A stretch of 26,247 nucleotides of DNA from Methanomicrobiales archaeon. Lineage in GTDB: Archaea; Halobacteriota; Methanomicrobia; Methanomicrobiales; JACTUA01. Made by a program: the position numbers and the translations under genes. Each line of letters opens with the position of its first letter. The first letter of the stretch is position 1. The notes beneath the pieces are model-generated. The model made no database searches, had not been told where the DNA came from, and was given only the letters and a program-made list of their open reading frames with translations. The stretch lies in assembly GCA_028678555.1 (NCBI GenBank), contig JAJRDF010000006.1, positions 1 to 26,247 of the forward strand, read 5' to 3'. Below are positions 5,806 to 19,735 of the stretch, in pieces.

Positions 5806-6591
5806 TCATGCTCCTGCGATAAGACTCAGCACCGCGTAGAGGATATCCCCGAAGATCAGGGCAGTGAAGAACCCTGCGGCGATGGGCACAATGAACGGCA
5901 CCCCGTAGGAGATCCAGACCTGCCCTGCCTTCCGGTAGAGGGCCAGTTCTCTTGCATACTGCTCCGGGTGCTCCCTCAGGTCCCGGGTATAGACCCTGCC
6001 CTCCCCCTTCATCATCCGGGAAAGCGCCGTCCCGATGGGGATGAACCGTCGCTGCAGCCCTTCCGGGGTCTCCTCGAACTCCTCCATCACAAACCCGAAC
6101 GTGCGCTGGATCCCATCGCCGGGGACCGGGAACCCGAAGAAGGGGTAGGGGAGGGGGGCCCGGTGTCCCTTCCGGAGGTTATGGAGGGCGATCCCCAGGG
6201 GGGTCACCAGGTTCAGGATCACGGCATTGACCAGGACCGAGAAGGGCAAGAATCCCAGGGGCGGGTACCCTAGGAGGGGACGGAACGGGAACAGGGGAAC
6301 GCAGCATGCAATGAAGATCAGGGCGTAGGCGTCCGCACCGCCGAAGAGGCGAAGGTACGCGAAGAGGTAGAAGACGGCAGAGAAGAGGAGGGAGAGAAAG
6401 AGGTACTGGAGGGCCAGTTTCCAGTCCTGGGAGAAGAGCGCTGCATAGGTGAGGATGACCATGGGGACGGCCACGATCAGCATGGGGTACCAGGTCCGGA
6501 CCGGCACCCGCCGGTCCCTCAGGTCCAGCACCGACGCGTAGAGGAGGGTGATACCAATGGCGAGGGCCCCGGCCAGGAGAGGGAGAATCAT
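5806..6591 (-). CDS. A24-family prepilin/preflagellin peptidase (PibD/FlaK-like)
   Basis: Multi-TM protein with the N-terminal catalytic Asp region LDLRDRRV, GGAD aspartic motif and C-terminal WISYGVPFIVPI. Confidence 0.9.
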   Translation of the reverse strand: MILPLLAGALAIGITLLYASVLDLRDRRVPVRTWYPMLIVAVPMVILTYAALFSQDWKLALQYLFLSLLFSAVFYLFAYLRLFGGADAYALIFIACCVPLFPFRPLLGYPPLGFLPFSVLVNAVILNLVTPLGIALHNLRKGHRAPLPYPFFGFPVPGDGIQRTFGFVMEEFEETPEGLQRRFIPIGTALSRMMKGEGRVYTRDLREHPEQYARELALYRKAGQVWISYGVPFIVPIAAGFFTALIFGDILYAVLSLIAGA

Positions 6592-6702: not shown

Positions 6703-6957
6703 TTGTTTTCCGTGATTGAGATCCGGGTCGACGAGAATGCCTGCAACGGCTGCGGCCTCTGCGTCAAGGACTGCCCGATGCAGGTCTACGAGATGCGGGA
6801 TACCGTCCCTGTCCCCGTCAGGGTGGCGAGCTGCATGGGGTGCCTCTCCTGCCACGAGATCTGTCCTGCCCAGGCACTGGAGCACCGGGGCGTCCACCCC
6901 TCGCGGCGGCACTACATCGATATCCGCGTCTGCGAGATGCTGAACCGGGTGATCTGA
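6703..6957 (+). CDS. 2x[4Fe-4S] ferredoxin
   Basis: CNGCGLCVKDCP and CMGCLSCHEICP motifs. TTG start is uncertain (GTG at 6712 is an alternative). TGA overlaps the next ATG (TGATG). Confidence 0.9.
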   Translation: MFSVIEIRVDENACNGCGLCVKDCPMQVYEMRDTVPVPVRVASCMGCLSCHEICPAQALEHRGVHPSRRHYIDIRVCEMLNRVI

Positions 6958-7520
6958 TGGCGGAAGGGACAGTCCCGCAGGCAAAGGAGGCCGGTTCCGC
7001 CCCCACCGTGTACCGGTCTGAGGATGTGCCCCTGCAGTGTATCCCTCCTCCGGACGAGCTGGAAGACACGCTCCACGGCCTGATGAAACTGAACGGGCTC
7101 ATCATCCGTTCCCTGGAGGAGATCGCCGGGAGGGGTGCCAACGCCGTGACCTACCGGGCCGGGCGGAAGTACGGCCACGAGGTTGCAAAATACTTCCGCA
7201 AGATCGAGGACGTGGAGGAGGCCCTGAAGGAACTCTCCTACATCCTCCACGGTCAGTATACCATCGAGATCTGGAAGCCGGCAGACAAGGACCGGTACAT
7301 CATCGAGGAGAACGGGTCCACGTTCATCTACCTCGTCTTCCATGACTGCATCGTCCGCCAGACGCTCCGGAGGAACGGGCAGCCCCAGGGGGGGCCCCTC
7401 TGCCTGACCCTCTTCGGGTACGTGGTGGGGGCCATCGAGGAGATCACCGGCCGGAAGGCAAAGCTGGAGATCGTGCATACCGGCCCGAACGCCTGCCTGA
7501 AGAAACTGATCCTCCAGTAA
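6957..7520 (+). CDS. V4R (4-vinyl-reductase / hydrocarbon-binding) domain protein, 187 aa
   Basis: Pattern LEEIAGRGANAVTYRAGRKYG...HDCIVR...GPLCLTLFGYVVGAIEEITG...NACL with three spaced Cys. ATG 6957 is coupled to the ferredoxin stop. Confidence 0.8.
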   Translation: MAEGTVPQAKEAGSAPTVYRSEDVPLQCIPPPDELEDTLHGLMKLNGLIIRSLEEIAGRGANAVTYRAGRKYGHEVAKYFRKIEDVEEALKELSYILHGQYTIEIWKPADKDRYIIEENGSTFIYLVFHDCIVRQTLRRNGQPQGGPLCLTLFGYVVGAIEEITGRKAKLEIVHTGPNACLKKLILQ

Positions 7521-7530
7521 GGGTTCCGCC

Positions 7531-8448
7531 ATGAAGATTGCCATCGAAGAACTGGCCGGTTGTTCCGGCTGCACCATCGCCGTCCTGGATCTTCACGAGG
7601 CGCTGCTCGATATCCTGGAGAAGGCCGAGATCGTCTATGCACCCGTGATCATGGACGTGAAGGAGCCACCGGAGGGGATCGATATCGCCTTCGTGACCGG
7701 TGCCGTCAGGAACCGGGAGAACGAGGAGCGGCTGACCCTGATCCGGAAGCGGGCAAAGACGCTGGTCGCCTTCGGCACCTGCGCCTGCTACGGGGGCATC
7801 TCGGGGCTCTCCATGCTGGATTCGCCGGAGCACCTGATCCAGCACGTCTTCCGGGGGGTCTCCACCACCCGCCCGGACGCACCGATCCCGAAGGATGTCC
7901 CGAAGTTCCTGTACCGGGCGTTCGCCGTCGGTGACCTGGCCAGGATGGACTACTACATCACCGGCTGCCCCCCGAAGGAGATGTATCTCTCAAAGATCCT
8001 CCCGGCGCTCATCGCCGGCGAGGTGCCGGCCCTCTCCCGGAAGTCCGTCTGCTCGGAGTGCGACCGGACCATGGGCTCGGTGGATGGGTGGAAACTGAGA
8101 CGCCGCCACGAGGGGGTGCCGGACCGGGAGCACTGCCTGCTGGGCCAGGGGTACCTCTGCCTGGGGGCTGTCACGTTCGGCCGGTGCGGGGCATCCTGCC
8201 CCCACAGCAACGTGCCGTGCCATGGCTGCAACGGCCCGTCCCTGGACATCCTCCGGGAACCCTGCCGGGACATCTACAACATGATGATCCGCCGGATCGC
8301 GGACCTGACCGGGCACACCGAGGCGGAGATCGAGAAGGAGATGTATGACGTGGCCCACACCTTCTACCCCTTCACCATCGGTTCCCTGATCATGGAAGAC
8401 AAGGGGATCTCCAAGATCCGCGACCTGGTGCGGGAGAGGAGCCTGTGA
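7531..8448 (+). CDS. [NiFe]-hydrogenase small subunit, MvhG-like (group 3), cytoplasmic
   Basis: LAGCSGC, FGTCACYGG, GCPP proximal ligands; SVCSECDR, CLLGQGYLCLG, CGASCP and PCHGCNGP for medial/distal clusters. No Tat signal. Confidence 0.9.
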   Translation: MKIAIEELAGCSGCTIAVLDLHEALLDILEKAEIVYAPVIMDVKEPPEGIDIAFVTGAVRNRENEERLTLIRKRAKTLVAFGTCACYGGISGLSMLDSPEHLIQHVFRGVSTTRPDAPIPKDVPKFLYRAFAVGDLARMDYYITGCPPKEMYLSKILPALIAGEVPALSRKSVCSECDRTMGSVDGWKLRRRHEGVPDREHCLLGQGYLCLGAVTFGRCGASCPHSNVPCHGCNGPSLDILREPCRDIYNMMIRRIADLTGHTEAEIEKEMYDVAHTFYPFTIGSLIMEDKGISKIRDLVRERSL

Positions 8449-9818
8449 CCCAGATCACCATCAGCCCGGTGACACGGATCGAGGGGCATGCCCAGGTCCG
8501 CATCCAGCTGAACGACCAGAAGCAGGTGGAACGGGCCCACTTCAGCGTCGTGGAACTCCGGGGCTTCGAGAAGTTCCTGATCGGGGCTGCGGTGGAGGAA
8601 GCCCCCCGGATCACGCCGCGGATCTGCGGCATCTGCCCCACCTCCCACCACCTGGCCTCGGCCATGGCCGTGGACCAGATCTTTGGCGTCACCCCGCCGG
8701 AGACCGGTCGGAAGCTCCGGGAACTCCTGGCCCATGCCCAGTGCATCCACTCCCATGCCATCCACTTCTTCATGCTGGCCGCCCCCGACTTCCTCATCGG
8801 TCACGATGCGCCGGCACAGGATCGGAACGTGCTGGGGATGGTGAAGAAGGCTCCTGCCATCGCCCGGAATGCCATCGAGGTCCGCAAGCTGGGGCAGCGG
8901 ATCACGGAAGCGGTGGGGGGAAAGCCCATCCATCCCTCCAACGCGGTGCCGGGGGGGATCTCCCGGCCGCTGGAGGAGGCGCAGCGGGCTGCCCTCCTCA
9001 CCCAGGCACGGAACGGGCTCTCCATCGCGGAGGAGGGGTGGGAACTGGCCCGGACCCTGCTGGATGCGACGGACCTCTCCCTGGGTGCCGTGGAGACGGC
9101 GTTCATGGGGATGTGCAGGGATGGTGAGTACACCCTCAGCGACGGCCAGGTCCTGATCGCAGGAAAGGACGGGAACCCCCTGGGATCCTTCGCCGGGGCC
9201 GACTACGTCCGGCACATCCAGGAGTATTCGGAGCCCTGGTCGTACCTGAAGTTCGTGAGGCTGGCCTCCGGTGAGCACTACCGGGTGGGGCCCCAGGCAC
9301 GGCTGAACCTCTGCCGGGCGATGGGCACCCCGCTCGCCGACGCGGCGCTGAAGGAGTACCGGGGACGCTTCGGGTCCTGGGTCCAGGCACCCCTGGCCGC
9401 CAACATGGCCCGGTACGTGGAGTTCCTGGCCTCCTGTGAACGGACCGTCCGGCTCCTGGAGGACCCCGCCATCACCGGGACCCGGGTCAGGGAGCCGGCA
9501 GGGAAGGTGGTGAACCACCGGGGCGTGGGGATCCTGGAAGCCCCCCGGGGCACCCTGATCCATGATTACACGGTCGATGAGCAGGGGTTCATCCGGGAAT
9601 GCAACCTGATCGTGGCCACCTGCCAGAACAGCTGGGCCATCGACCGGTCGGTGGAACAGGCGGCCCGGGGGCTGGTCAGGGACGGGGCGCTCACGGAAGC
9701 GGCGGGAAACCGCATCGAGATGGTGATCCGGTCCTATGATCCCTGTATCTCCTGTGCCACCCATGCCATCGGCAGGATGCCGGTGGCCGTTGAGGTCCGG
9801 GATGCAATAAATATTTGA
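8445..9818 (+). CDS. [NiFe]-hydrogenase large subunit, MvhA-like (group 3)
   Basis: TRIEGH, L1 RICGICPTSH, EAPRGTLIHDY, L2 YDPCISCATH plus a 17-aa C-terminal tail. GTGA overlap with the small subunit gene. Confidence 0.93.
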   Translation: MTQITISPVTRIEGHAQVRIQLNDQKQVERAHFSVVELRGFEKFLIGAAVEEAPRITPRICGICPTSHHLASAMAVDQIFGVTPPETGRKLRELLAHAQCIHSHAIHFFMLAAPDFLIGHDAPAQDRNVLGMVKKAPAIARNAIEVRKLGQRITEAVGGKPIHPSNAVPGGISRPLEEAQRAALLTQARNGLSIAEEGWELARTLLDATDLSLGAVETAFMGMCRDGEYTLSDGQVLIAGKDGNPLGSFAGADYVRHIQEYSEPWSYLKFVRLASGEHYRVGPQARLNLCRAMGTPLADAALKEYRGRFGSWVQAPLAANMARYVEFLASCERTVRLLEDPAITGTRVREPAGKVVNHRGVGILEAPRGTLIHDYTVDEQGFIRECNLIVATCQNSWAIDRSVEQAARGLVRDGALTEAAGNRIEMVIRSYDPCISCATHAIGRMPVAVEVRDAINI

Positions 9819-9858
9819 GAGTGGGAGAAGAAGATTGGATAAGGGGCGAAAAACCTGT

Positions 9859-10206
9859 ATGCTCAATCAGATTCTTGCCGAATTCCTGAAACTGGACGGG
9901 GTGTTTGCAGCGGTGGTTGTGGGCCGTGACGGGATTGTCATCGAGAGTGCGGTCTCGGGGAAGGTGGATATCGATGCGCTGGGCGCGATGGCATCCACCG
10001 GCATGGGCACTGCCGAGGCGATGGGCAACGAGCTGGGGAAAGGGGAACTCAACCAGATGATGGTGGAACTGGAGAAGGGACCGATTCTCCTCTCGCCCCT
10101 CTCGAAGGACGAGCTGATTGCCATCGTCTCGGACACCACGGGTAACATCGGCCGGATCAGGTACGAACTCAAGAAAAACAAGGAACGGATCATTGCTGCA
10201 CTCTGA
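9859..10206 (+). CDS. Roadblock/LC7 (MglB-like) protein, 115 aa
   Basis: L..FLKLDGVFAAVVVGRDGIVIES...LGAMAS...LGKGELNQMMVELEKGPILL...NIGRIR signature. ATG 9859 is preferred over the track's TTG 9835. Confidence 0.9.
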   Translation: MLNQILAEFLKLDGVFAAVVVGRDGIVIESAVSGKVDIDALGAMASTGMGTAEAMGNELGKGELNQMMVELEKGPILLSPLSKDELIAIVSDTTGNIGRIRYELKKNKERIIAAL

Positions 10207-10209
10207 CAC

Positions 10210-12142
10210 ATGATGCACACCGGGAAGGTAAGGGGCAGGTTCAGCGAGGTCCTGCCCAAGGTGAGGACTCTCAGGGGGGCGATGCGGGTGATCACCCCCG
10301 AGGGAAGGGGCGTGGTACTGGTGGACATGGGGAAACCGATGGCGTCCTACCTGAAGGCGGGAGAGACCACGTTCCGGGGCAGCGAGTCGCTGGAGCTCCT
10401 TGAATCCGAGCCGATGGCCGAGTACGACCTGGTGGCCTACGAAGAGGACGAGTTCCGCGAAGCGATGGGTATCTGTGCCAGCGAGGGCCTCCGGCTGGAG
10501 GATTACCGTGCCGCTGCGGCGGTGACCGGTGGGGCAGAGAAGGGAGGCGGCCTCCTGTCGAACCTCTTCCGGAGGTTCTCCGGCGTTGGGAATGAGGCAG
10601 AGACCGCTCCGTCCCCCCGTCCCCGGCCCCTGAAGGAGGAGAAGGTGCCGGAGCCGATCCCTCCCGTGGTGAGCCCTCCGGAGGCGGCCCCGCCGGTTGC
10701 GAAACCGCCGGAGCCGTCGGCCATGGAAGAGAAGGAACCCTTCCCGGTGGGAATTCCCGCGGCCTCCCCGTCCCCTCCCCCCGCCCCAGCGCAGGAGGAG
10801 TCCGAGCTCTCGGCCATCGTGAAAAGACTCTCCCGATCCCGCGGGGTATCCCCGCTACCCGCGGAGACACCTCCGCCTCCTCCCGTGTCCGCACCCTCCC
10901 CGGTCCCCGTAGGCACCCCCGCGCCCCGGGAGGAAGGAGCCCCCCTTTCCGCCGGTGAACCGGAGGAGGAGAAGGAGGAAGAGGAAGCAGCGGTCCCGGG
11001 CGATGACACCCTGGACGAGATTCTGAGACGGTACAAATCCGGCGGGCAGGCGCTGGTTGTGGCATGGGGAGAGCAGGGGGAACAGTCCCGGGTGGAAATG
11101 AATGCCATGATGAAACGGATCACACGGCTGGACATTGTCTCCTTCAGGAAGGAGATGGAGGACGTGAAATCCACTGCCCTCCGTGACAGCGCCGCAGGGC
11201 GGGAGGCCCGAGACCTTCCCGGGGAACCGGTTGCCCGCGGGGCGATTCCCCCTCCCCCTGCCCCGGAGAAAGAGATGGTGCCGGTGGAACCGGTCCCCCA
11301 GGAACCAACCCGGCCATCCACGGATATGGACGACCTGAAGGCATTCATCCGGCAGCTGGAGAGCCTGGATCTGCAGACCCGGGAGCCGGTGCCGGAGGAG
11401 ATACCGGTCGTGCCCGTGGAGCCCCCGGCCCCGTCTCTCCGGCCGAAGGAGACCCCCGCTCTCACGATCGTTCCCGGCGTGCTCGGCAGCCTGCCCCCCC
11501 GGCCGAAGGAGGTTCCCGAATCCCCGAAGGCCGGGTCCGGAAAGGCGCTGCCACCCATGAGATTCGGGGAGCCCCTGGAGGCGGACCGGAAAGTGGAACG
11601 CCGGCCAGTCGTTCTCCCGGAGTCCCCTGCAGGTGCGGAAACGCCCGCCCGGGAGGTGATCATCCAGTGGAAGGAGGATGAGCCGCTGTCGGGAGCCGCT
11701 GCGGGGACAGCCACCCTGCCGGGGGCCCCCCAGGCAGAGGCGCCCCGGGGCCGGCCGGTGATCCTGAAACGGGAGATCGATATCCGGAGGGTCGAACGCC
11801 GGCCGGAACGGCCACGGGCTGCCCTTCCGCTCCTGGATGAGACGAAGATGGAGAAGATCATGCGCCAGCCCGGAGTCATCGCCGTAGGAAGGGTTTGCGA
11901 TCCAGTCCGTCGGAAAGGCGGACTTCGACCAGGTGGCAGCGAATGCAGAGGACCTGCTCCGGGCCGGTACCAAGATTGCATCGGATATCCATATCGGAAC
12001 CCTCCACCAGATCATTCTCGAGAGCGCCGGAGGGAAGCTGATCATCTCCCCGTACGGGGATCTGAACCTCTGCGTCTTCACCGATGCCGATGCCAACCTG
12101 GGACTGATCCGCGTGGCAATCCGGTCCCTGCAGGCGGAGTGA
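10210..12142 (+). pseudogene. DUF2226/PATAN-like N-domain + Pro/Glu-rich linker + C-terminal Roadblock domain, interrupted by a frameshift at ~11887 (real lesion or sequence error)
   Basis: Frame 0 reads ...IMRQPGVIAV to 11886. The Roadblock sequence continues in the +1 frame from 11888 (EGFAIQSVGKADFDQVAANAEDLLRAG...NLGLIRVAIRSLQAE*, TGA ends 12142). Confidence 0.8.
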
Positions 12143-12147
12143 TCCGG

Positions 12148-12831
12148 ATGAAAATACCCCACTGCTCCACGACGGCGACCCGGAGGGGGGTAACGGTCAG
12201 GGAGCTCCTGGACCAGCTGACCACCGGCAGGTTCACCGGCTACTGTGCCATCCCTTTCGGCGAGAATATCACCTCCCTTGTCTTTGAGGGGGGCATCTGC
12301 CTCCTGGCCGAACACCTGGGGCAGGGGGGATATCCGGGCCTCCAGAAACTGGCGGTCATGGGAGAGGCCCGGGTGGATGCGGCACTCTGCGAATTCACGA
12401 CAACCCAGCTGGCCGTCACCCTGAAACTGAACGACCGGTGCCGGGTGGTCCTGCCGCCCGCCTCCCCCCAGGCCGGAGCCGGTACAGCCTCACGGGACAC
12501 TTTCGTGAGACCGGTGAAGCTTGCAGGGGTGGGCGCAAAACCGGTCCGGGTCACGAGCCTGCGGACGAAGGGGGTCCCTGCCGGGCATGCCGGGGCCGGG
12601 GGCCGGGGAAAGGCCGCCCCGGGCCAGATCGTGGACCGGAAGATAGGCCGGACCGAACAGCCCATCGGCAGGAAGGAGGAACCCATCACCAAGTCAGCCC
12701 TGGAGAGCCTGAAGACCATCAAGGATTCCTTCAAAACCGATGCCGCGGACCTGCTGGAGGAGCTGAACCTGGGCCACCTGGTGGTGAAGGGACAGCCCAA
12801 AAATGCCGGGAAAGAGGAAGAAAAAAGATGA
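12148..12831 (+). CDS. DUF2226/PATAN-like domain protein, 227 aa, with basic linker and helical C-terminus
   Basis: Own RBS GGAGTGA and ATG 12148. Pattern VRELLDQLTTGRFTGYCAI...LVFEGGICLLAE...GYPGLQKL. The domain name comes from pattern recognition only. Confidence 0.75.
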   Translation: MKIPHCSTTATRRGVTVRELLDQLTTGRFTGYCAIPFGENITSLVFEGGICLLAEHLGQGGYPGLQKLAVMGEARVDAALCEFTTTQLAVTLKLNDRCRVVLPPASPQAGAGTASRDTFVRPVKLAGVGAKPVRVTSLRTKGVPAGHAGAGGRGKAAPGQIVDRKIGRTEQPIGRKEEPITKSALESLKTIKDSFKTDAADLLEELNLGHLVVKGQPKNAGKEEEKR

Positions 12832-12909: not shown

Positions 12910-12932
12910 CGCTCTGTATGAGCAGGTGCGAG

Positions 12933-13721
12933 ATGTTCAGAGCTTTCACCATTGCTTCCGGAAAAGGCGGTACCGGGAAAACCACAGTAACCGTCAATCT
13001 GGGCACATCACTGGCCCAGCTGGGAAAGGAGACCTTCATCCTGGATGCCGATATCGGCATGGCCAACCTGGGGCTGGTGCTGGGCCTCGAAAGTGTTCCC
13101 GTCACCCTCCACGAGGTACTGGCAGGAAAGGCCAGCATCGAGGATGCCATCTACGAGGGGCCCAACGGCCTCAAGGTGGTCCCGAGCGGCATCTCGCTCC
13201 AGGGATTCCAGAATGCCGATCCCGAGAAGATGAAGGATGTGATGAGGGACCTGGTGGGGAGGAGCGAGTTCCTCCTCATCGATGCCCCGGCCGGCATCAG
13301 CAAGGACGGTGTCGTTGCCCTCGCCATCGCCGATGAGGTGGTGCTCGTGGTGAACCCGGAGCTCTCCTCCATGGCCGATGCCCTGAAAACCAAGATCCTC
13401 ACCGAGATGGTGGGGGGGAAGGTCTACGGGGCCATCCTGAACCGGGCAGGGATGGAGAACACCGAGCTGCGCAGGCACAGCGTGGAGGACGTCCTGGGTG
13501 TCCGGGTCATCGACATGATCCCGGAGGACGCCAACGTGAGGAGGGCGGCCGCTTATAAGACACCGGTTGTGATCAAGTACCCCACCTCAGGCGCGTCGCG
13601 GGCATTCCGGCGGATTGCCGCTGACCTGGCCGGTTCCGAGTACAAGGAAGAGAAGACTGCGGTCCAGGAAGGGTTCGTGGATCGCCTGGCACGGACCCTC
13701 TTCGGGGGCGCCCAACGGTAG
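12933..13721 (+). CDS. minD: MinD/ParA-family ATPase (archaeal MinD-like)
   Basis: Deviant Walker A SGKGGTGKTT, DADIGMANL, LLIDAPAG and a C-terminal amphipathic helix GFVDRLARTLF. Start at 12933 is favoured by TATA spacing; 12918 is the alternative. Confidence 0.92.
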   Translation: MFRAFTIASGKGGTGKTTVTVNLGTSLAQLGKETFILDADIGMANLGLVLGLESVPVTLHEVLAGKASIEDAIYEGPNGLKVVPSGISLQGFQNADPEKMKDVMRDLVGRSEFLLIDAPAGISKDGVVALAIADEVVLVVNPELSSMADALKTKILTEMVGGKVYGAILNRAGMENTELRRHSVEDVLGVRVIDMIPEDANVRRAAAYKTPVVIKYPTSGASRAFRRIAADLAGSEYKEEKTAVQEGFVDRLARTLFGGAQR

Positions 13722-13909: not shown

Positions 13910-14542
13910 GTGAACAACCGTACGTCTGAGATTTCCAGCATCATCGATGAGGTGCTCAGCAACGCGACCTTTGTCGCCAGTTATCCCCTGGACGAGCTGA
14001 TCCGTTCCGCCGAGGAATCCGGAGTGAACGGGATCGGCGTCTATGAGGAGAAGGAGCGGAAATTCTTTCTGATGTTCGAGGCGGGTCAGCCGGAAGGGGT
14101 CATCTACGTGGACCCCAAGGGAACCCTCTTTGGTGACAAGGCCGCATTCCTCCTCTCGGGGAAAGAGACCTTCGAATTCTTCCAGGTCAGCCAGCCGATG
14201 GTGAATGCCCTGGCATCCCGGTGCAGGGTCTTTGACAAGAGCCACCTGAAGAAGCGCCTCCGTGAGGAGCTCCCCACGTTCGGGGGAAAGAGGCCGAGCC
14301 CCGGGGTCCTCTGCCTGATCATTGTGAAAGACGGTGTCACCCAGACGGGGATCCGGGTATCCATCAAGAAGGGCCGTCAGATCATTGCGAGCGATATGAC
14401 CACATCCGATGGAAAGGTCTGCTTCAAGCTGCTCAACGGGAAATATGACTGCACGGCCGTGGACCGGGATCAGGCGATGTACACGTTCATGGTTGATTTC
14501 AATCACCGGTATGCGGAGACCACCATAGAAATTGGGGGGTAG
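13910..14542 (+). CDS. Hypothetical protein: DUF2226/PATAN-like N-domain plus beta-rich (carboxypeptidase-regulatory/transthyretin-like) C-domain
   Basis: GTG start with GAGG upstream. N-half VNGIGVY...FFLMFEAGQPEGVIY...GTLFGDKA; C-half GIRVSIKKG...TTSDGKVCFKLLNGKY. Only 3 nt separate it from the ATPase start. Confidence 0.7.
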   Translation: MNNRTSEISSIIDEVLSNATFVASYPLDELIRSAEESGVNGIGVYEEKERKFFLMFEAGQPEGVIYVDPKGTLFGDKAAFLLSGKETFEFFQVSQPMVNALASRCRVFDKSHLKKRLREELPTFGGKRPSPGVLCLIIVKDGVTQTGIRVSIKKGRQIIASDMTTSDGKVCFKLLNGKYDCTAVDRDQAMYTFMVDFNHRYAETTIEIGG

Positions 14543-14545
14543 CAG

Positions 14546-17500
14546 ATGTCTCAAATGGATCCAAAGAAGGAAGAACTGAATGCAATGATGAAACGCCTGG
14601 GCCTGCTCGGCATGGAGACCGCCGACGAGGCCCCGGCTGCACCGGCCGGACCGGTGGTCCAGGTGGAGAAACCGACTGTGGTCCGGGCAACGGCGCCGGA
14701 AAGTGCCAGGGAGCAGGAAGTACCCGTACGGCCGGGGGAGAGCATTCCTCCGGCCGCAGCGGCACCGAAGGCAAAGAAACCGTCTTCCCCGCCCTCCGTG
14801 GGCCCGGAGGATCTCTCGCCCATGATGGACCGGCTGAAGCGGCTGGACCTGTCCACATTCCGGCAGGAGATCGAGGAAGCGCCGGAACCCGCCGCGGTTC
14901 CTGTGAAATCCCCTCAGGCGGCACCCCAGCCAGCCCCCCAGGATGACCTCTCTCTCCTCATGAAGCGGCTGGAGGGGGCTGTCCCCCCGAAAGAACCTGC
15001 CCCCCAGGCCGTCAGGGCCACCCGGGCCGAGGCTGCCCCGCTCCCCCAGGCACCCCCCGCCCCGGCCGCGGCCGTCCCGGAGGATGACCTCTCTGCCCTC
15101 ATGAAGCGGCTCGGCGGCGGCCTGCCACCCAAGGAGGCCGGGAAGAAGACCGTCCGGGCCACCCGGGCCGAGACTGCCCCGCAGGCAGCCCCCGTTCCGC
15201 CCGCAGCGGCCCAGGAGGATGACCTCTCTGCCCTCATGACGCGGCTGGAAGGTGTCACGAAGGATACGGGAGCCGAGCCCGAGGTCCGTGCCGCGGAACC
15301 CCGGGCGGCTCCGGCACCGGCAAGAAAAGTCCCCCAGGCTCCTGCAGCTCCCCCCGCCGCACGAGACGGGGATCTCTCCACCATGATGGACCGCCTGAAG
15401 CAGCTGGATCTGGCCATCGGCGAGGAGAAGCCGGAGGCGAAAGCGAAGGAAACGCAGGCCCCGCCTCCCGCCCTGGAGCCCCCCACGGGTCCCGGCGACG
15501 AATACGAGGCCCTGGTGCAGCGCCTGGGATCCTTCCGGCAGGAGATGAAGGCTGCCAGGGATGCCCGGACCGCCGAGACCACTGGGAAGGAGGAGTCTGC
15601 CCCTGCGCCCCGCCAGCGGGTAGGGGGGACGAAGGCGGTCCAGGGCGCCGCGGTCACCGCCGGGAACCTGGACGCCATGGCCCGCAGTGCGGGCACGGCC
15701 TCAGCGGCGGACCAGGAGGTCACCCAGGTCATCGACGATATCTTCAAGGTCCACACGGACACGTCCCTCGCGGAAGGCAAGGTGAATGTCTTCGATTCGC
15801 TCCACGATATCGCCGAGTCGGGGACCGGGGAGGCGGCAATGGAGGAGACCCCGTCGAAGCCTGTCCAGGCCAAGCGCACGCGCTGGTCAGAGATGGAGAC
15901 TGAGGAGGCCGAGGAGGCTGAGGATACCATCGTCTCTGTGGACGAGATCAAGGATATCTCTGACCTAATCCTGCCCAAGGGAGCCACCTTTGCCATCGAC
16001 GAGGTAAAGCTCCACGAGAGGACCGCCGTCTTTGATGTGAAGGGTGGCGGTATCGCCGGGAAGGTGCCCTCCGAGATGATCGAGAGCTGGCACTCCCAGC
16101 TCCCCATGGGGGTCATCAAGGACGTGGTTATCGGTGGTGAAGGGGCCCCGGAACAGCCGAAGGGGAAGGCAGGGGGGATCCTCGGCAGACTGAACATCAT
16201 GAAGGTGATCCGGCCCGAGATCGAGGAGTACAACCCCAAGATCCACGGCCCCCTGGTGGACCTGAACATCCGGGCCCAGCCCACCATCGAGGAGGTGGAG
16301 ATCTACCCGGTGAACGAACCGTATGCCTATATCCGGATCATCCACGACAGCACCTCCCACGAGTACACCTACCAGGTGCTGGAGCCCCAGCTCTCCCCGG
16401 CCGAGAAGGAGCTCCTGGTGGAGATCAAGCAGCGACTCTTCGAGACCCTGGAGGTGAATACGAAGGACATCACCAAGGATTCGGCAAAGAAAGCCATCCG
16501 GGGTGCAGTGGACGGGATCCTCCGGGATTACGGCATCTCACTCTCCCCGGCAGGGAGGGAGAAGATCCTGTACAACATCGAGAAGGAGTTCCTGGGCGAC
16601 GGGCTCGTGGACCCCATCATGCACGACAAGTACATCGAGGATATCTCCTGTGACGGGATCAATATCCCCATCTTCGTGTACCACACCTCCTATGAGAATA
16701 CGAAGACCAACCTCATGTACCGGGACGAGGAGGACCTGGATTCCTTTGTCACCAAGATGGCGCAGCGGGCAGGCAAGCACATCTCCATCGCCGAGCCCAT
16801 CCTGGACGCCACCATGCCGGACGGGTCCCGTATCCAGATGACCCTGGGTGCCGAGGTCACGGCCCATGGATCCACCTTCACGATCCGGAAATTCCGTGAA
16901 GAGCCCATCACGCCAACGGATCTGATCGAGTGGTCCACCTTTTCGCCCCTCTCCATCGCCTACCTCTGGCTGGCGGTGGAGAGCGGGAAATCGGCGATCT
17001 TTGCCGGGGGTACCGCATCCGGGAAGACCACGTCGCTCAATGCCATCTCCCTCTTCATTCCCCCGATGGCCAAGATCGTTTCCCTGGAGGATACACGGGA
17101 ACTGAAGCTCCCCCACCCCAACTGGATAGCCTCGGTCACCCGGGACTCCTTTGACACGGCGGGGAAAGGGCAGATCGACATGTACGAGCTCCTGCGGGCT
17201 GCACTGCGGCAGCGGCCGGAGTACCTGGTGGTGGGCGAGGTGAGAGGCAAGGAGGCCCTCACCCTGTTCCAGGCCATGTCGACAGGCCACGTCACCTATT
17301 CCACCATCCACGCTGACTCAGTGGCGAGCGTCGTCCACCGTATCGAGAACGCGCCCATGGACGTGCCCCGCAACATGCTCTCTGCGCTGAACCTGGTGGC
17401 CGTCCAGACCCAGGCCCGGATCGGAGGCCAGCGGATCCGGCGCTCCAAGCAGATCATCGAGATTCTGGATATCGACCCGCGGACGAACGAGCTGATCACG

Positions 17501-17773
17501 AACGAGGTCTTCCGGTGGTATCCCTCCACGGACGAGATCCGGTACTCCGGCAAGTCCTACATCCTGGAGGAGATCATGGAAGAGCGCGGCTGGAGCGAGT
17601 CCCGGATGAAGGAGGAGCTGAAACGGCGCCAGGAGCTGCTGGAGTGGATGCGTCTCAAGATGATCCGGCACTACAAGGACGTGTCGAAGATGCTCATCTC
17701 CTACTTCCGGGATCCCGAGGCGGTCATTGAGATCGTGCGCAAGGACCTCTATGCCAAGGGAGAGGCCGCATGA
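14546..17773 (+). CDS. Type II/IV secretion (type IV pilus) ATPase, VirB11/PilB/ArlI family, with ~540-aa low-complexity N-terminal extension
   Basis: IEDISCDG, DATMPDGSRIQMT, FTIRKF, Walker A GGTASGKTT, SLEDTREL, ALRQRPEYLVVGEVRG and MSTGH...TIHA motifs. Confidence 0.95.
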   Translation: MSQMDPKKEELNAMMKRLGLLGMETADEAPAAPAGPVVQVEKPTVVRATAPESAREQEVPVRPGESIPPAAAAPKAKKPSSPPSVGPEDLSPMMDRLKRLDLSTFRQEIEEAPEPAAVPVKSPQAAPQPAPQDDLSLLMKRLEGAVPPKEPAPQAVRATRAEAAPLPQAPPAPAAAVPEDDLSALMKRLGGGLPPKEAGKKTVRATRAETAPQAAPVPPAAAQEDDLSALMTRLEGVTKDTGAEPEVRAAEPRAAPAPARKVPQAPAAPPAARDGDLSTMMDRLKQLDLAIGEEKPEAKAKETQAPPPALEPPTGPGDEYEALVQRLGSFRQEMKAARDARTAETTGKEESAPAPRQRVGGTKAVQGAAVTAGNLDAMARSAGTASAADQEVTQVIDDIFKVHTDTSLAEGKVNVFDSLHDIAESGTGEAAMEETPSKPVQAKRTRWSEMETEEAEEAEDTIVSVDEIKDISDLILPKGATFAIDEVKLHERTAVFDVKGGGIAGKVPSEMIESWHSQLPMGVIKDVVIGGEGAPEQPKGKAGGILGRLNIMKVIRPEIEEYNPKIHGPLVDLNIRAQPTIEEVEIYPVNEPYAYIRIIHDSTSHEYTYQVLEPQLSPAEKELLVEIKQRLFETLEVNTKDITKDSAKKAIRGAVDGILRDYGISLSPAGREKILYNIEKEFLGDGLVDPIMHDKYIEDISCDGINIPIFVYHTSYENTKTNLMYRDEEDLDSFVTKMAQRAGKHISIAEPILDATMPDGSRIQMTLGAEVTAHGSTFTIRKFREEPITPTDLIEWSTFSPLSIAYLWLAVESGKSAIFAGGTASGKTTSLNAISLFIPPMAKIVSLEDTRELKLPHPNWIASVTRDSFDTAGKGQIDMYELLRAALRQRPEYLVVGEVRGKEALTLFQAMSTGHVTYSTIHADSVASVVHRIENAPMDVPRNMLSALNLVAVQTQARIGGQRIRRSKQIIEILDIDPRTNELITNEVFRWYPSTDEIRYSGKSYILEEIMEERGWSESRMKEELKRRQELLEWMRLKMIRHYKDVSKMLISYFRDPEAVIEIVRKDLYAKGEAA
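14810..15412 (+). repeat. In-frame coding tandem repeat, five units of 132-153 nt
   Basis: GAT(GAC)CTCTC...ATG...CGGCT units start at 14810, 14942, 15083, 15218 and 15371, encoding DLS(P/L/A/T)(M/L)M(D/K/T)RL. A VRATRAE sub-repeat is also present. Confidence 0.85.
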
Positions 17774-18693
17774 ACAGTTACGAGCGGTTCTGTTTCAGGA
17801 TCCTGGGAGAGCGGGCCAAGAAGAGAAGGGAGGAGTTCCTCTCGCTCCGCAACAACCTGCTGAGGGGACGGATCAGCACCCCTTTTGAGGCGTACCTGGC
17901 CACGGCGTGGGTCAGTTCATTCCTCGGAGGGTTCCTGGCGGCTGCGATCCTGGGCCTCCTGAGTTTCTGGCTCAGGATCCCCGAGATGATCACCTACAAG
18001 GGGACGCTTCCTGAGTTCATGTACGGCATGTCGGATTACCGGCTGGTGGCAGGCACCATCCTCACCTTCCTCCTGGCCCTCCTCATCATCGGCGGGATCA
18101 TTTACCTGATCTTCATGGTGTACCCCAGCGTGGTGGCCGGGGAACGGCGCCGTAACATTGATGCCACGCTCCCCTACGCCATCAACTACGTCACCGCCAT
18201 GTCCACGGCAGGGATCACGCCGGCAGAGGTCTTCAGCCTCCTGGGAGACAGCCCCATCTACGGGGAGAGCTCGGTGGAGGCACGGTACATCACCCGGGAG
18301 GTCCGCGTCTTCGGTAAGGATCTCATGGACGCCATCCGCGTCGTCTCCACCGTGACCCCCAGTGAACGGATGAAGGAGTTCCTGCAGGGGGCGGTAGCCA
18401 GCATCTCCGCCGGGTCCAACCTCACCGAGTACTTCCGGAACAAGGCCCAGCAGTATACCCTGGAGAACCGGCAGTCCCAGAAGATGTTCCTGGAGACCCT
18501 GGGGCTCATCGCCGAATCCTACGTCACTGCGCTCGTCGCAGGGACGCTGTTCCTCATCATCCTGCAGTCCATCATGTCCATCATCGGCGGCGATACCAAC
18601 CCGTTCCTCCTCTACATCGTCATCTACCTGATCGTGCCCTTCGGGAGCATCATGTTCGTGGTCCTGATCTCCTCCATGACACCGGAGACGTAA
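17770..18693 (+). CDS. Type II secretion system F family (TadC/PilC-like) membrane platform protein
   Basis: ERRRNIDATLPYAINYVTAMSTAG...EARYITREVRVFGKDLMDAI with several TM helices. ATGA overlap with the ATPase. Confidence 0.92.
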   Translation: MNSYERFCFRILGERAKKRREEFLSLRNNLLRGRISTPFEAYLATAWVSSFLGGFLAAAILGLLSFWLRIPEMITYKGTLPEFMYGMSDYRLVAGTILTFLLALLIIGGIIYLIFMVYPSVVAGERRRNIDATLPYAINYVTAMSTAGITPAEVFSLLGDSPIYGESSVEARYITREVRVFGKDLMDAIRVVSTVTPSERMKEFLQGAVASISAGSNLTEYFRNKAQQYTLENRQSQKMFLETLGLIAESYVTALVAGTLFLIILQSIMSIIGGDTNPFLLYIVIYLIVPFGSIMFVVLISSMTPET

Positions 18694-18694
18694 C

Positions 18695-19735
18695 ATGAGC
18701 CTGAGTGAAACCTTCAACAATTTCCTGAACCGCAAGAGCTACAAGCGGGAGAATGTCCCGGAGATGGTGCTCAGCGATTTCGAACGCGATGAGGCCCATA
18801 TCCTGGAGAAGATCTCCTACCAGAAGAAGATCCGGGAAGGCCTGGGCAGGTTCATGAAACACCCGTTCCAGGTCATCCGCGAGAATCCCACCAACGTGCT
18901 GATCCTCTCCATCCCGATGGCAGCCCTGGTCTTCGTGGGCGGGCTCCTCCTCATGTTCATGAACAACAGCCTCCTGACCATCTTCACGGAAACGCTGGTT
19001 GACGACGTGATCTGCCTCGCGGTGCTGGTCGCCATCGTGCCCCTTGCCATCCTGGACTTCATGGAGTCAAAGCGGGTGAACAGCCTGGAGGAGGCCCTCC
19101 CCAACTTCTTCCGGGACGTGGCCGGTATGAACGACAGCGGGATGACACTGCCCAACGCCATCCACAACGTGTCCCAGGGCCATTACGGGGCCCTGACCCC
19201 CTACATCCGGCGGCTGAACTCCGAGATGTCCTGGTCGGTCCCCTTCGTGGAGGCCCTCCTCCGGTTCGGGAAACGGGTGGGGACCCCCCTGGCCCAGCGG
19301 GCGGTGGACCTGATCTCCAAGGCATCCAAGGCGGGGGGCGATGTCTCCGAGGTGCTCAGGGCGGCGGCCAACGACTCCTACGAGTTCTACAATCTGAAAC
19401 AGGAGCGGAGGAACAACATGCTCATCTACATGGTGATCGTGGTCATCTCGTTCCTGGTCTTCCTGTTCGTCATCGCCATCCTCTGTTCCACCTTCCTCAC
19501 CACCATGGCCGAGGCCGGGGCCAAGGCATCCTCGGCAGGCGCCGCGGCAGCCGGGTTCATGGGTGCTGTGGACATCCTCTTTTACAAGCGGATCTTCTCC
19601 CATGCCGCCCTGATCCAGGGATTCTTCTCGGGTCTCGTGGCAGGGCAGATGGGGGAGGGGAGCGCCGTCGCCGGCCTGAAATACTCGGCCATCATGCTCA
19701 CCATCGCCTGGATCACCTTCCGGTTCTTTATCTGA
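18695..19735 (+). CDS. Second type II secretion system F family (TadC/PilC-like) platform protein
   Basis: LEEALPNFFRDVAGMNDSGMTL, GGDVSEVL and HAALIQGFFSGLVAGQMGEG motifs. Confidence 0.92.
   Translation: MSLSETFNNFLNRKSYKRENVPEMVLSDFERDEAHILEKISYQKKIREGLGRFMKHPFQVIRENPTNVLILSIPMAALVFVGGLLLMFMNNSLLTIFTETLVDDVICLAVLVAIVPLAILDFMESKRVNSLEEALPNFFRDVAGMNDSGMTLPNAIHNVSQGHYGALTPYIRRLNSEMSWSVPFVEALLRFGKRVGTPLAQRAVDLISKASKAGGDVSEVLRAAANDSYEFYNLKQERRNNMLIYMVIVVISFLVFLFVIAILCSTFLTTMAEAGAKASSAGAAAAGFMGAVDILFYKRIFSHAALIQGFFSGLVAGQMGEGSAVAGLKYSAIMLTIAWITFRFFI

Follow-up and report, generated by a model that had tools for sequence, protein, structure and literature searches.

An Mvh-like hydrogenase linked to a V4R-fold protein and to Roadblock, MinD and type IV pilus genes in Methanomicrobiales: a possible H2 input to a surface-structure switch

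Background

The closest described relatives of the hydrogenase discussed here are the group 3c enzymes MvhAGD/VhuAGDU, i.e. the Hdr-coupled, electron-bifurcating and F420-non-reducing hydrogenases that dock on MvhD-HdrABC, and it is this role that the literature gives to Memar_1007-1008 and to 'Mvh1' of Methanocella (PMC2686161, PMC3146512). We analysed a stretch of 26,247 nucleotides (hereafter the window; contig JAJRDF010000006.1, labelled C18) of a Methanomicrobiales metagenome-assembled genome (MAG; GCA_028678555.1, 1.46 Mb, 78% complete), which carries a four-gene cassette for a ferredoxin, a V4R-fold protein and the small and large subunits of an Mvh-like [NiFe]-hydrogenase. The cassette runs on into genes for two Roadblock/LC7 proteins, a MinD-type ATPase and a type IV pilus assembly machine, and we tentatively propose that the hydrogenase may serve these downstream proteins rather than Hdr.

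The partners of the enzyme have described counterparts as well. The V4R fold is used elsewhere for ligand sensing, and the V4R-like protein Bet3 pairs with longin/Roadblock-like proteins in TRAPP. Methanogens use the Ech and Eha enzymes for the coupling of H2 to ferredoxin. Both Ech and Eha have been listed for Methanomicrobiales (PMC2686161), and in archaea type IV pilus loci are already known to be accompanied by Roadblock and MinD proteins (PMC4858521). Our literature searches, which did not cover subscription journals, retrieved nothing that describes a link of V4R, Roadblock or pilus to a hydrogenase.

Results

The cassette lies on the forward strand and opens with the gene for an 81-residue ferredoxin with a conserved C-terminal tail (6712..6957; Pfam Fer4, E=1e-10), the translation of which holds two CxxCxxCxxxC motifs (Cys 11/14/17/21 and 41/44/47/51) for two [4Fe-4S] clusters; these eight cysteines are invariant in 19 orthologues. 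It is followed by the gene for a V4R/Bet3-fold protein of 187 residues (6957..7520), recognised by its AlphaFold model, Foldseek matches and conserved residues, and then by those for an MvhG-like small subunit of 305 residues with three [4Fe-4S] sites (7531..8448; Pfam Oxidored_q6, E=3e-26) and an MvhA-like large subunit of 457 residues with an intact L1/L2 Ni-Fe site (8445..9818; Pfam NiFeSe_Hases, E=3.5e-36). The stop codon of the ferredoxin gene and the start codon of the V4R gene overlap in TGATG (6955-6959), the V4R and small-subunit genes are 10 nt apart, and the two subunit genes overlap in GTGA (8445-8448). Overlaps or very short gaps in fact prevail from the ferredoxin gene through to that of the second Roadblock protein, and in the window the operon genes downstream of the hydrogenase are separated by gaps of 3-190 nt.

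The large subunit carries RIEGH at residue 11 (nt 8475-8489), RICGIC at residue 59 (8619-8636), EAPRG at residue 365 (9537-9551) and DPCISC at residue 432 (9738-9755), the last of these continuing as DPCISC-ATH and then as a C-terminal (maturation) extension of 17 residues. A gene for a HycI-type maturation endopeptidase is found just upstream of the cassette in Methanolacinia (L003:3375-3857) and at one metagenomic locus (L107:997-1266), which is consistent with processing of this extension. Aligned with canonical MvhG homologues, the small subunit is found to retain the full set of 13 cysteines, i.e. the ligands of the proximal, medial and distal clusters, and all 13 are invariant in 19 orthologues. 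The hydrogenase, a soluble enzyme, looks catalytically competent. The original prediction, which had been made from the letters of the window, held that the metal ligands are intact and that a ferredoxin and a V4R protein, coupled by the TGATG overlap, occupy the slot of mvhD or frhB; both statements were borne out. The same alignment also shows that the V4R-linked small subunits have a conserved C-terminal tail of greater length and a 5-residue insert ('LDILREPCRD') that adds a cysteine, Cys245 (both within window 8248-8448, residues ~240-305); the MvhD-linked small subunits lack them. Insert and tail together form a candidate docking surface for a partner.

The conservation of this arrangement was surveyed by labelling the open reading frames (ORFs) around every fetched homologue, which yielded 84 V4R-family loci, 80 of them from species-representative genomes. 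Only loci with enough flank enter a given count, hence the varying denominators, and because most of the loci stem from two related orders many of the counts are not independent. The V4R gene precedes the small-subunit gene in 81/81 loci and the large-subunit gene comes next in 75/75, while the ferredoxin gene lies directly upstream of the V4R gene in 80 of 83. The association extends beyond the hydrogenase: the large-subunit gene is followed by that of a 115-residue Roadblock protein in 68 of 71 loci and then by that of a longer one in 67 of 70, and a MinD/ParA ATPase is encoded at most 6 kb from the V4R gene in 59 of the 84. A gene for MvhD or for full-length HdrA was found within 6 kb in none of the 84 loci, whereas among the other Mvh-like large subunits of our first tree (see below) mvhD lies within 9 kb in 18 of 27 cases and a long HdrA-like gene is the only such neighbour in 4 more. 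Where mvhD is adjacent it usually stands directly upstream of the small-subunit gene, which is the slot that the V4R gene holds here. ORF and family scans of the window itself likewise found no mvhD, hdr or frhB gene.

The strongest clue to the role of the enzyme is the continuation of its operon into a Roadblock/LC7, MinD and PilB3-type pilus system. The first Roadblock protein (115 residues, 9859..10206; Pfam Robl_LC7, E=4e-16) starts with ATG at 9859; the listed ORF begins with TTG at 9835, and over 9835-10206 the Robl_LC7 score is 58.9 bits against a cut-off of 23. The protein is 70-95% identical across the order, family f5 included, which has no hydrogenase of this type. The second, long Roadblock protein (10210..12142) has a Pro-rich linker and a C-terminal Roadblock domain at 11888-12142, and the MinD/ParA-family ATPase (12918..13721) is recognised by the Pfam models CbiA, ParA and AAA_31. 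The pilus genes encode a PilB3-type assembly ATPase of 1075 residues (14546..17773; Pfam T2SSE, E=8e-37, and PilB3_C) and two PilC/TadC-like platform proteins (17770..19735; Pfam T2SSF). The ATPase is unusually long through an N-terminal extension, several relatives having about 770-870 residues.

The assignment of the V4R-fold protein depends on structure prediction. Scans with Pfam and NCBIfam assigned no family to the window protein, the Pfam V4R model (PF02830) giving no match even at E<=10; the same model matches 5 of 42 family members weakly (best E=4.5e-4), and a profile of the family searched against PDB sequences recovered only TRAPPC3, at an insignificant E=0.42. An AlphaFold (AF2) model built from these 42 members (pLDDT, the model's own confidence score, 90.8) was matched by Foldseek in the PDB best to the V4R sensor domains of MopR, PoxR and DmpR and then to TRAPPC3 (Bet3), including a Thorarchaeota protein, and in AFDB to MopR, XylR and the M. 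jannaschii V4R proteins MJ0207 and MJ0150. Public (COG-based) records moreover name the orthologues 'hydrocarbon binding protein (contains V4R domain)'. Because the predicted fold and the public name agree, the V4R label given by the original prediction holds at the level of the model, despite the missing Pfam match. Every family member has Cys131 and Cys149 and nearly all have Cys180; His174 is shared by all orthologues. The protein is 71-93% identical across the order and, between Methanomicrobiales and Methanocella, is the most conserved component of the cassette, at 66% identity, the other subunits reaching 53-59%. The family is a small one: among 1.8 billion proteins its members fall into 73 clusters at the 50% identity level. 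A complex prediction for small subunit, ferredoxin and V4R protein scored 0.63 and a control in which the small subunit was replaced scored 0.53, a result that we count neither for nor against an interaction.

In the first phylogeny of the large subunit (IQ-TREE, 62 sequences) the V4R-linked enzymes of Methanomicrobiales and Methanocella, together with one metagenomic sequence, form a single starred clade (96/92). Its sister (90/83) consists of enzymes from Methanocella and family f10 that are MvhD/HdrA-linked; the other MvhD-linked clades branch outside these two and the root is unresolved. When distant V4R-linked sequences were added in a second, quick tree, the core clade was kept, now with a MAG labelled Methanobacteriaceae, and two deeper V4R-linked pairs (L093/L107 and L108/L109) were left unresolved at the base, so that the V4R linkage may have had either a single origin or several. 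The best NCBIfam models are VhuA and VhuG, with scores below their equivalog cut-offs (379 versus 800 and 239 versus 450 bits, respectively), and the closest solved structures of the large subunit are 7t2r_D and then MvhA (5odc_F, E=9e-112). The RxCGxC and DPCxxC Ni-Fe ligands and the cluster cysteines of the small subunit are those of a [NiFe]-hydrogenase heterodimer. For an F420-reducing enzyme of group 3a an FrhB would be needed, which the window does not encode, and the FrhA-like gene of the MAG lies on another contig (C96) and is 28% identical. A group 2b regulatory enzyme does not fit either, as the 17-residue extension is present, the operon has no kinase and the nearest families and structures belong to group 3. 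On the large-subunit trees the enzyme therefore is a distinct subclade, probably inside the Mvh-like (3c-type) radiation. The distinct group 3 subclass that had been predicted is upheld as a clade of its own, though probably not as one outside 3c, since it is sister to an MvhD-linked clade.

The alternative that survives best is the conventional one, according to which the enzyme is an MvhAG isoenzyme of the Hdr-coupled hydrogenase that docks on MvhD-HdrABC encoded elsewhere, the ferredoxin being an acceptor or an MvhB-like accessory and the V4R and Roadblock proteins unrelated neighbours or minor regulators. The affinities described above agree with it, i.e. the VhuA/VhuG models, MvhA as the second-best solved relative, the MvhD-linked sister clade and the conservation of all electron-relay cysteines, and so do the published assignments of Memar_1007-1008 and Methanocella 'Mvh1'. 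The occurrence of mvhD in related genomes is also in its favour. PF02662 (MvhD) was found neither in the MAG nor in two MAGs of the same genus. All of these also lack a full-length hdrA, however, and the MAG of the window lacks mcrA. In the closest good genome (G004) hdrB-hdrA-mvhD lies about 10 kb from mcrA, and in G002, a genome of the same genus, a contig breaks off at hdrB, just where hdrA-mvhD would be expected. Because mcrA and full-length hdrA are missing too and because of the position of hdrB in G002, the absence of mvhD is best explained by an assembly gap, and genome-wide absence was accordingly rejected as evidence. Of the 20 high-quality relatives 19 do contain mvhD, carriers of the V4R-type hydrogenase included, and in the four loci inspected (L005-L008) it stands beside hdrA. 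The predicted lack of MvhD and Hdr is hence shown for the locus only.

A number of observations nevertheless speak against a conventional Hdr-coupled isoenzyme. Besides the contrast in mvhD/hdr linkage and the clade-specific insert and tail of the small subunit, which could dock another partner, families f5 and f6 have mvhD and no V4R-type hydrogenase. Moreover, two genomes of family f14, which we take to be those of Methanocella arvoryzae and M. conradii, each hold an enzyme of the V4R type as well as a canonical pair, the latter within a few kb of hdrA-mvhD. Named Methanocella records carry the same ferredoxin-V4R-hydrogenase cassette, and in the transcriptome supplement for M. conradii (PMC6046458, a single data set, the gene tags of which were matched by gene order) Mtc_0113 to Mtc_0103 follow exactly the gene order of locus L060. 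There mvhA-1, mvhG-1 and the gene that takes the place of V4R, annotated as hypothetical, have a log2 mean FPKM (fragments per kilobase per million) of 9.1-9.4, similar to that of the two adjacent 'bithoraxoid' (Roadblock) genes, whereas the canonical mvhA-2/mvhG-2 reach 12.6-12.9, i.e. are transcribed about 13-fold higher, and hdrB-1/hdrC-1 ('Hdr1', Mtc_1469-1470) are almost silent (log2 FPKM 3-4). In syntrophic coculture the Roadblock genes and Mtc_0106 (DUF2226) are up by 1.2-1.6 log2. On balance we consider the conventional explanation rather unlikely.

Comparison of the loci points to a modular build-up of the operon. The layout of the window, from the cassette through the pilus genes, recurs in families f1 and f2. 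Family f5 has neither the V4R-type hydrogenase nor the V4R protein and keeps Roadblock 1 (78-83% identical), Roadblock 2, PilB3 and PilC; in its genomes (L098-L101, L103) this operon is highly conserved and has two PilC genes, and besides a prepilin peptidase they encode a Ua207-Ub171-MinD module in divergent orientation. A metagenomic, Methanomicrobiales-like locus (L026:8001-14970) consists of V4R (57% identical), Roadblock 1, Roadblock 2, PilB3 and two PilC genes, has no ferredoxin or hydrogenase genes, and is flanked as in the window by LeuRS, PIN-ATPase and prepilin peptidase genes. In Methanocella the order is ferredoxin, V4R, small subunit, large subunit, Roadblock 1, Roadblock 2, DUF2226, a gene without assignment and MinD. 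Because the Roadblock-PilB3 loci of f5 and L026 persist without the hydrogenase, the Roadblock-MinD(-pilus) genes are, as far as gene order can tell, the older unit, and the ferredoxin-V4R-hydrogenase genes a module attached at its front.

This modularity bears on another alternative, in which the enzyme is a metabolic, ferredoxin-linked hydrogenase that exchanges electrons between H2 and the ferredoxin pool for anabolism or redox balancing, with V4R as a structural or cofactor subunit and the Roadblock and MinD proteins placing or regulating the enzyme as cargo (e.g. near the pilus base). A dedicated, translationally coupled ferredoxin gene, the complete catalytic equipment and the moderate, steady transcript levels in M. 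conradii are in line with such a function, and MinD/ParA ATPases are cargo-positioning machines (PMC4858521). The persistence of Roadblock-MinD-PilB3 modules without the hydrogenase, however, implies that they are not hydrogenase-specific helpers. In addition, V4R folds are typically ligand-sensing domains and Ech/Eha already couple H2 to ferredoxin in methanogens, so that we hold a metabolic role of this kind to be unlikely.

The association of V4R and hydrogenase is not confined to close relatives. Genes for a hydrogenase pair also follow those of four distant V4R homologues (34-48% identity), and in three of the four cases Roadblock genes are adjacent. At L093 (6084-11150; genome G176, family f15) ferredoxin, V4R (34%), small- and large-subunit (42%) genes are directly followed by those of a PilB3-like ATPase and a PilC-like protein, with MinD and Roadblock genes nearby, which looks like an independent instance of hydrogenase-pilus adjacency. 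On the bacterial contig of L109 (6596-14432) the order is Roadblock, V4R, small subunit, large subunit, ferredoxin, a second V4R/ATC_hydrolase-like protein and a HycI protease; it continues with two STAND/NACHT-type ATPases with TPR repeats, and sigma-70 and DnaG are neighbours. That the cassette was merely inserted at a permissive site before the Roadblock genes and then inherited vertically, as the dominance of two related orders (and hence the non-independence of the counts) might suggest, is very improbable given that the adjacency recurs with different flanks in the distant lineages of L093, L107 and L109, survives locus rearrangements in Methanoculleus and Methanocella, and involves stop and start codons that overlap or nearly touch.

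Divergent from the operon, an archaeal class III signal (prepilin) peptidase is encoded on the reverse strand (5806..6591; Pfam Arc_PepC_II and Peptidase_A24), in a position that is kept in relatives. Between Roadblock 2 and MinD lies the gene for a protein of the 224-residue type with a Ua207/DUF2226-like N-terminus (12148..12831), 30% identical to Ua207 of Methanoculleus; the DUF4388 match of Ua207 is weak (E=0.018, below cut-off), so that a PATAN-like identity is possible at most. The pilus ATPase gene is preceded by that of a conserved 210-residue protein (13910..14542), which has no Pfam match and is also found upstream of PilB3 in L026, L078, L079, L083, L087 and L102. A second, paralogous Ua207-Ub171-MinD-U67 module is present away from the window in the same MAG (contig C1:1791-4249), and in Methanoculleus such a module lies directly upstream of the hydrogenase cassette. 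The 873-residue ORF at 10210-12831 is a chimera of two genes, caused by a frameshift near 11887: the C-terminus of Roadblock 2 reads in another frame (11888-12142) and a separate gene begins at 12148, while G002 has intact genes for 666 and 224 residues at this position. The frameshift may be either an assembly error or a real pseudogene; public sequencing reads gave a few short contigs, labelled as metatranscriptome and probably from DNA libraries, none of which spans it or bears on transcription.

Discussion

We propose, with a probability of roughly 0.4, that the V4R-linked hydrogenase provides mainly an H2/redox input to a Roadblock-MinD-pilus switch, i.e. one that governs surface structure or polarity, and is not a bulk electron donor to Hdr. 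In such a scheme H2 would be oxidised at the Ni-Fe site, and the small subunit with its three [4Fe-4S] clusters would relay the electrons to the ferredoxin and also to or near a site that Cys131, Cys149, His174 and Cys180 form in the V4R protein. This protein would then hand its redox or ligand state to the Roadblock pair, in a manner resembling the Bet3-longin pairing of TRAPP, and the Roadblock pair would determine how active the MinD ATPase and the pilus assembly machine are, or where they are placed. We count in favour of this proposal the conserved gene order, the separate clade, the paralogy in Methanocella together with the contrast in expression, the modularity of the loci, the conservation of the V4R protein, the coupling of the genes and the literature on Roadblock and MinD proteins in pilus loci.

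Several findings pull in the other direction. The enzyme keeps the full marks of a working catalyst (Ni-Fe and Fe-S ligands and the C-terminal maturation extension) and therefore lacks features of the known sensory hydrogenases. The locus offers neither a small GTPase nor a kinase as output: the small GTPase families have no match in any scanned ORF of the window, where a MinD-type ATPase is encoded instead, and family scans found no kinase in the operon. In families f3 and f4 the pilus genes lie apart from the cassette, and in Methanoculleus, Methanolacinia and their relatives it has Roadblock and MinD genes as neighbours but not those of the pilus. Finally, Methanoculleus and its relatives have the V4R-type enzyme as their only MvhAG homologue and encode mvhD-hdrABC elsewhere, which leaves room for the textbook role of feeding Hdr. 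A sensory role is nonetheless plausible, be it for an enzyme that is not a member of group 2b, the known sensory class.

A more specific version of the proposal, which we think unlikely as it stands, is that the two Roadblock proteins, which are longin-like, would form together with the Bet3-like V4R protein a prokaryotic TRAPP-like switch, set by H2 through a Cys3His metal or Fe-S site, that steers the place and time of PilB3-driven pilus assembly via Roadblock and MinD. Such a switch would be a direct H2 sensor by which hydrogenotrophic methanogens adhere to H2-producing syntrophic partners. To our knowledge, no sensor for the H2 taxis of methanogens has been identified. Taxis toward H2 itself has been demonstrated (PMC3817446), and a signalling role of the hydrogenase would provide a concrete candidate for how methanogens perceive H2, which is a long-standing question. 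The pairing of V4R and Roadblock proteins is also of interest for the prokaryotic ancestry of TRAPP-like modules. As the enzyme figures as the Hdr-coupled Mvh in metabolic models of Methanoculleus, Methanofollis and Methanocella (PMC2686161, PMC3146512), a role in signalling or positioning with partners of its own would, if true, imply that the electron donor of HdrABC needs to be re-examined in methanogens that are abundant in biogas plants and wetlands.

Comparison with known systems

With MvhAGD/VhuAGDU (group 3c, PDB 5odc) the system shares homologous subunits, the Ni-Fe ligands, three sets of [4Fe-4S] ligands, the cytoplasmic location and the gene order of partner, small subunit and large subunit. 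It differs in that the partner is a V4R-fold protein with a ferredoxin and not the [2Fe-2S] protein MvhD, in that it is never found beside hdr, and in having its own clade, Vhu scores under the cut-off, a small subunit with a Cys-containing insert and longer tail, and a continuation into Roadblock and MinD genes. The likeness to the H2-sensing enzymes of group 2b (HoxBC-HoxJ, HupUV-HupT) is limited to the proposed role, i.e. a signal output rather than energy, whereas the closest relatives are in group 3, the C-terminal extension that is absent from the regulatory enzymes is kept, and a V4R/Roadblock pair would take the place of the histidine kinase as output.

The downstream part corresponds to the MglA/MglB polarity switch, the FleN/MinD regulators of type IV pili and the Roadblock proteins of arCOG02603 (PMC4858521) in combining Roadblock with a MinD-family ATPase and a PilB/PilC machine. 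It differs in having no MglA-type GTPase that we could find, and it carries in front a hydrogenase-ferredoxin-V4R module that the census of PMC4858521 does not mention. The V4R protein, lastly, has the fold (Foldseek probability 1.0, TM score 0.53-0.58) of the V4R domains of MopR, PoxR, DmpR and XylR and of TRAPP Bet3 (TRAPPC3; eukaryotic/Asgard), with conserved cysteines in the C-terminal half and, as for Bet3 in TRAPP, partner genes for longin/Roadblock-like proteins; at 12-18% identity and out of reach of the Pfam V4R model, it nevertheless differs from these in being a stand-alone protein of 187 residues to which no sigma-54 activator module is attached.

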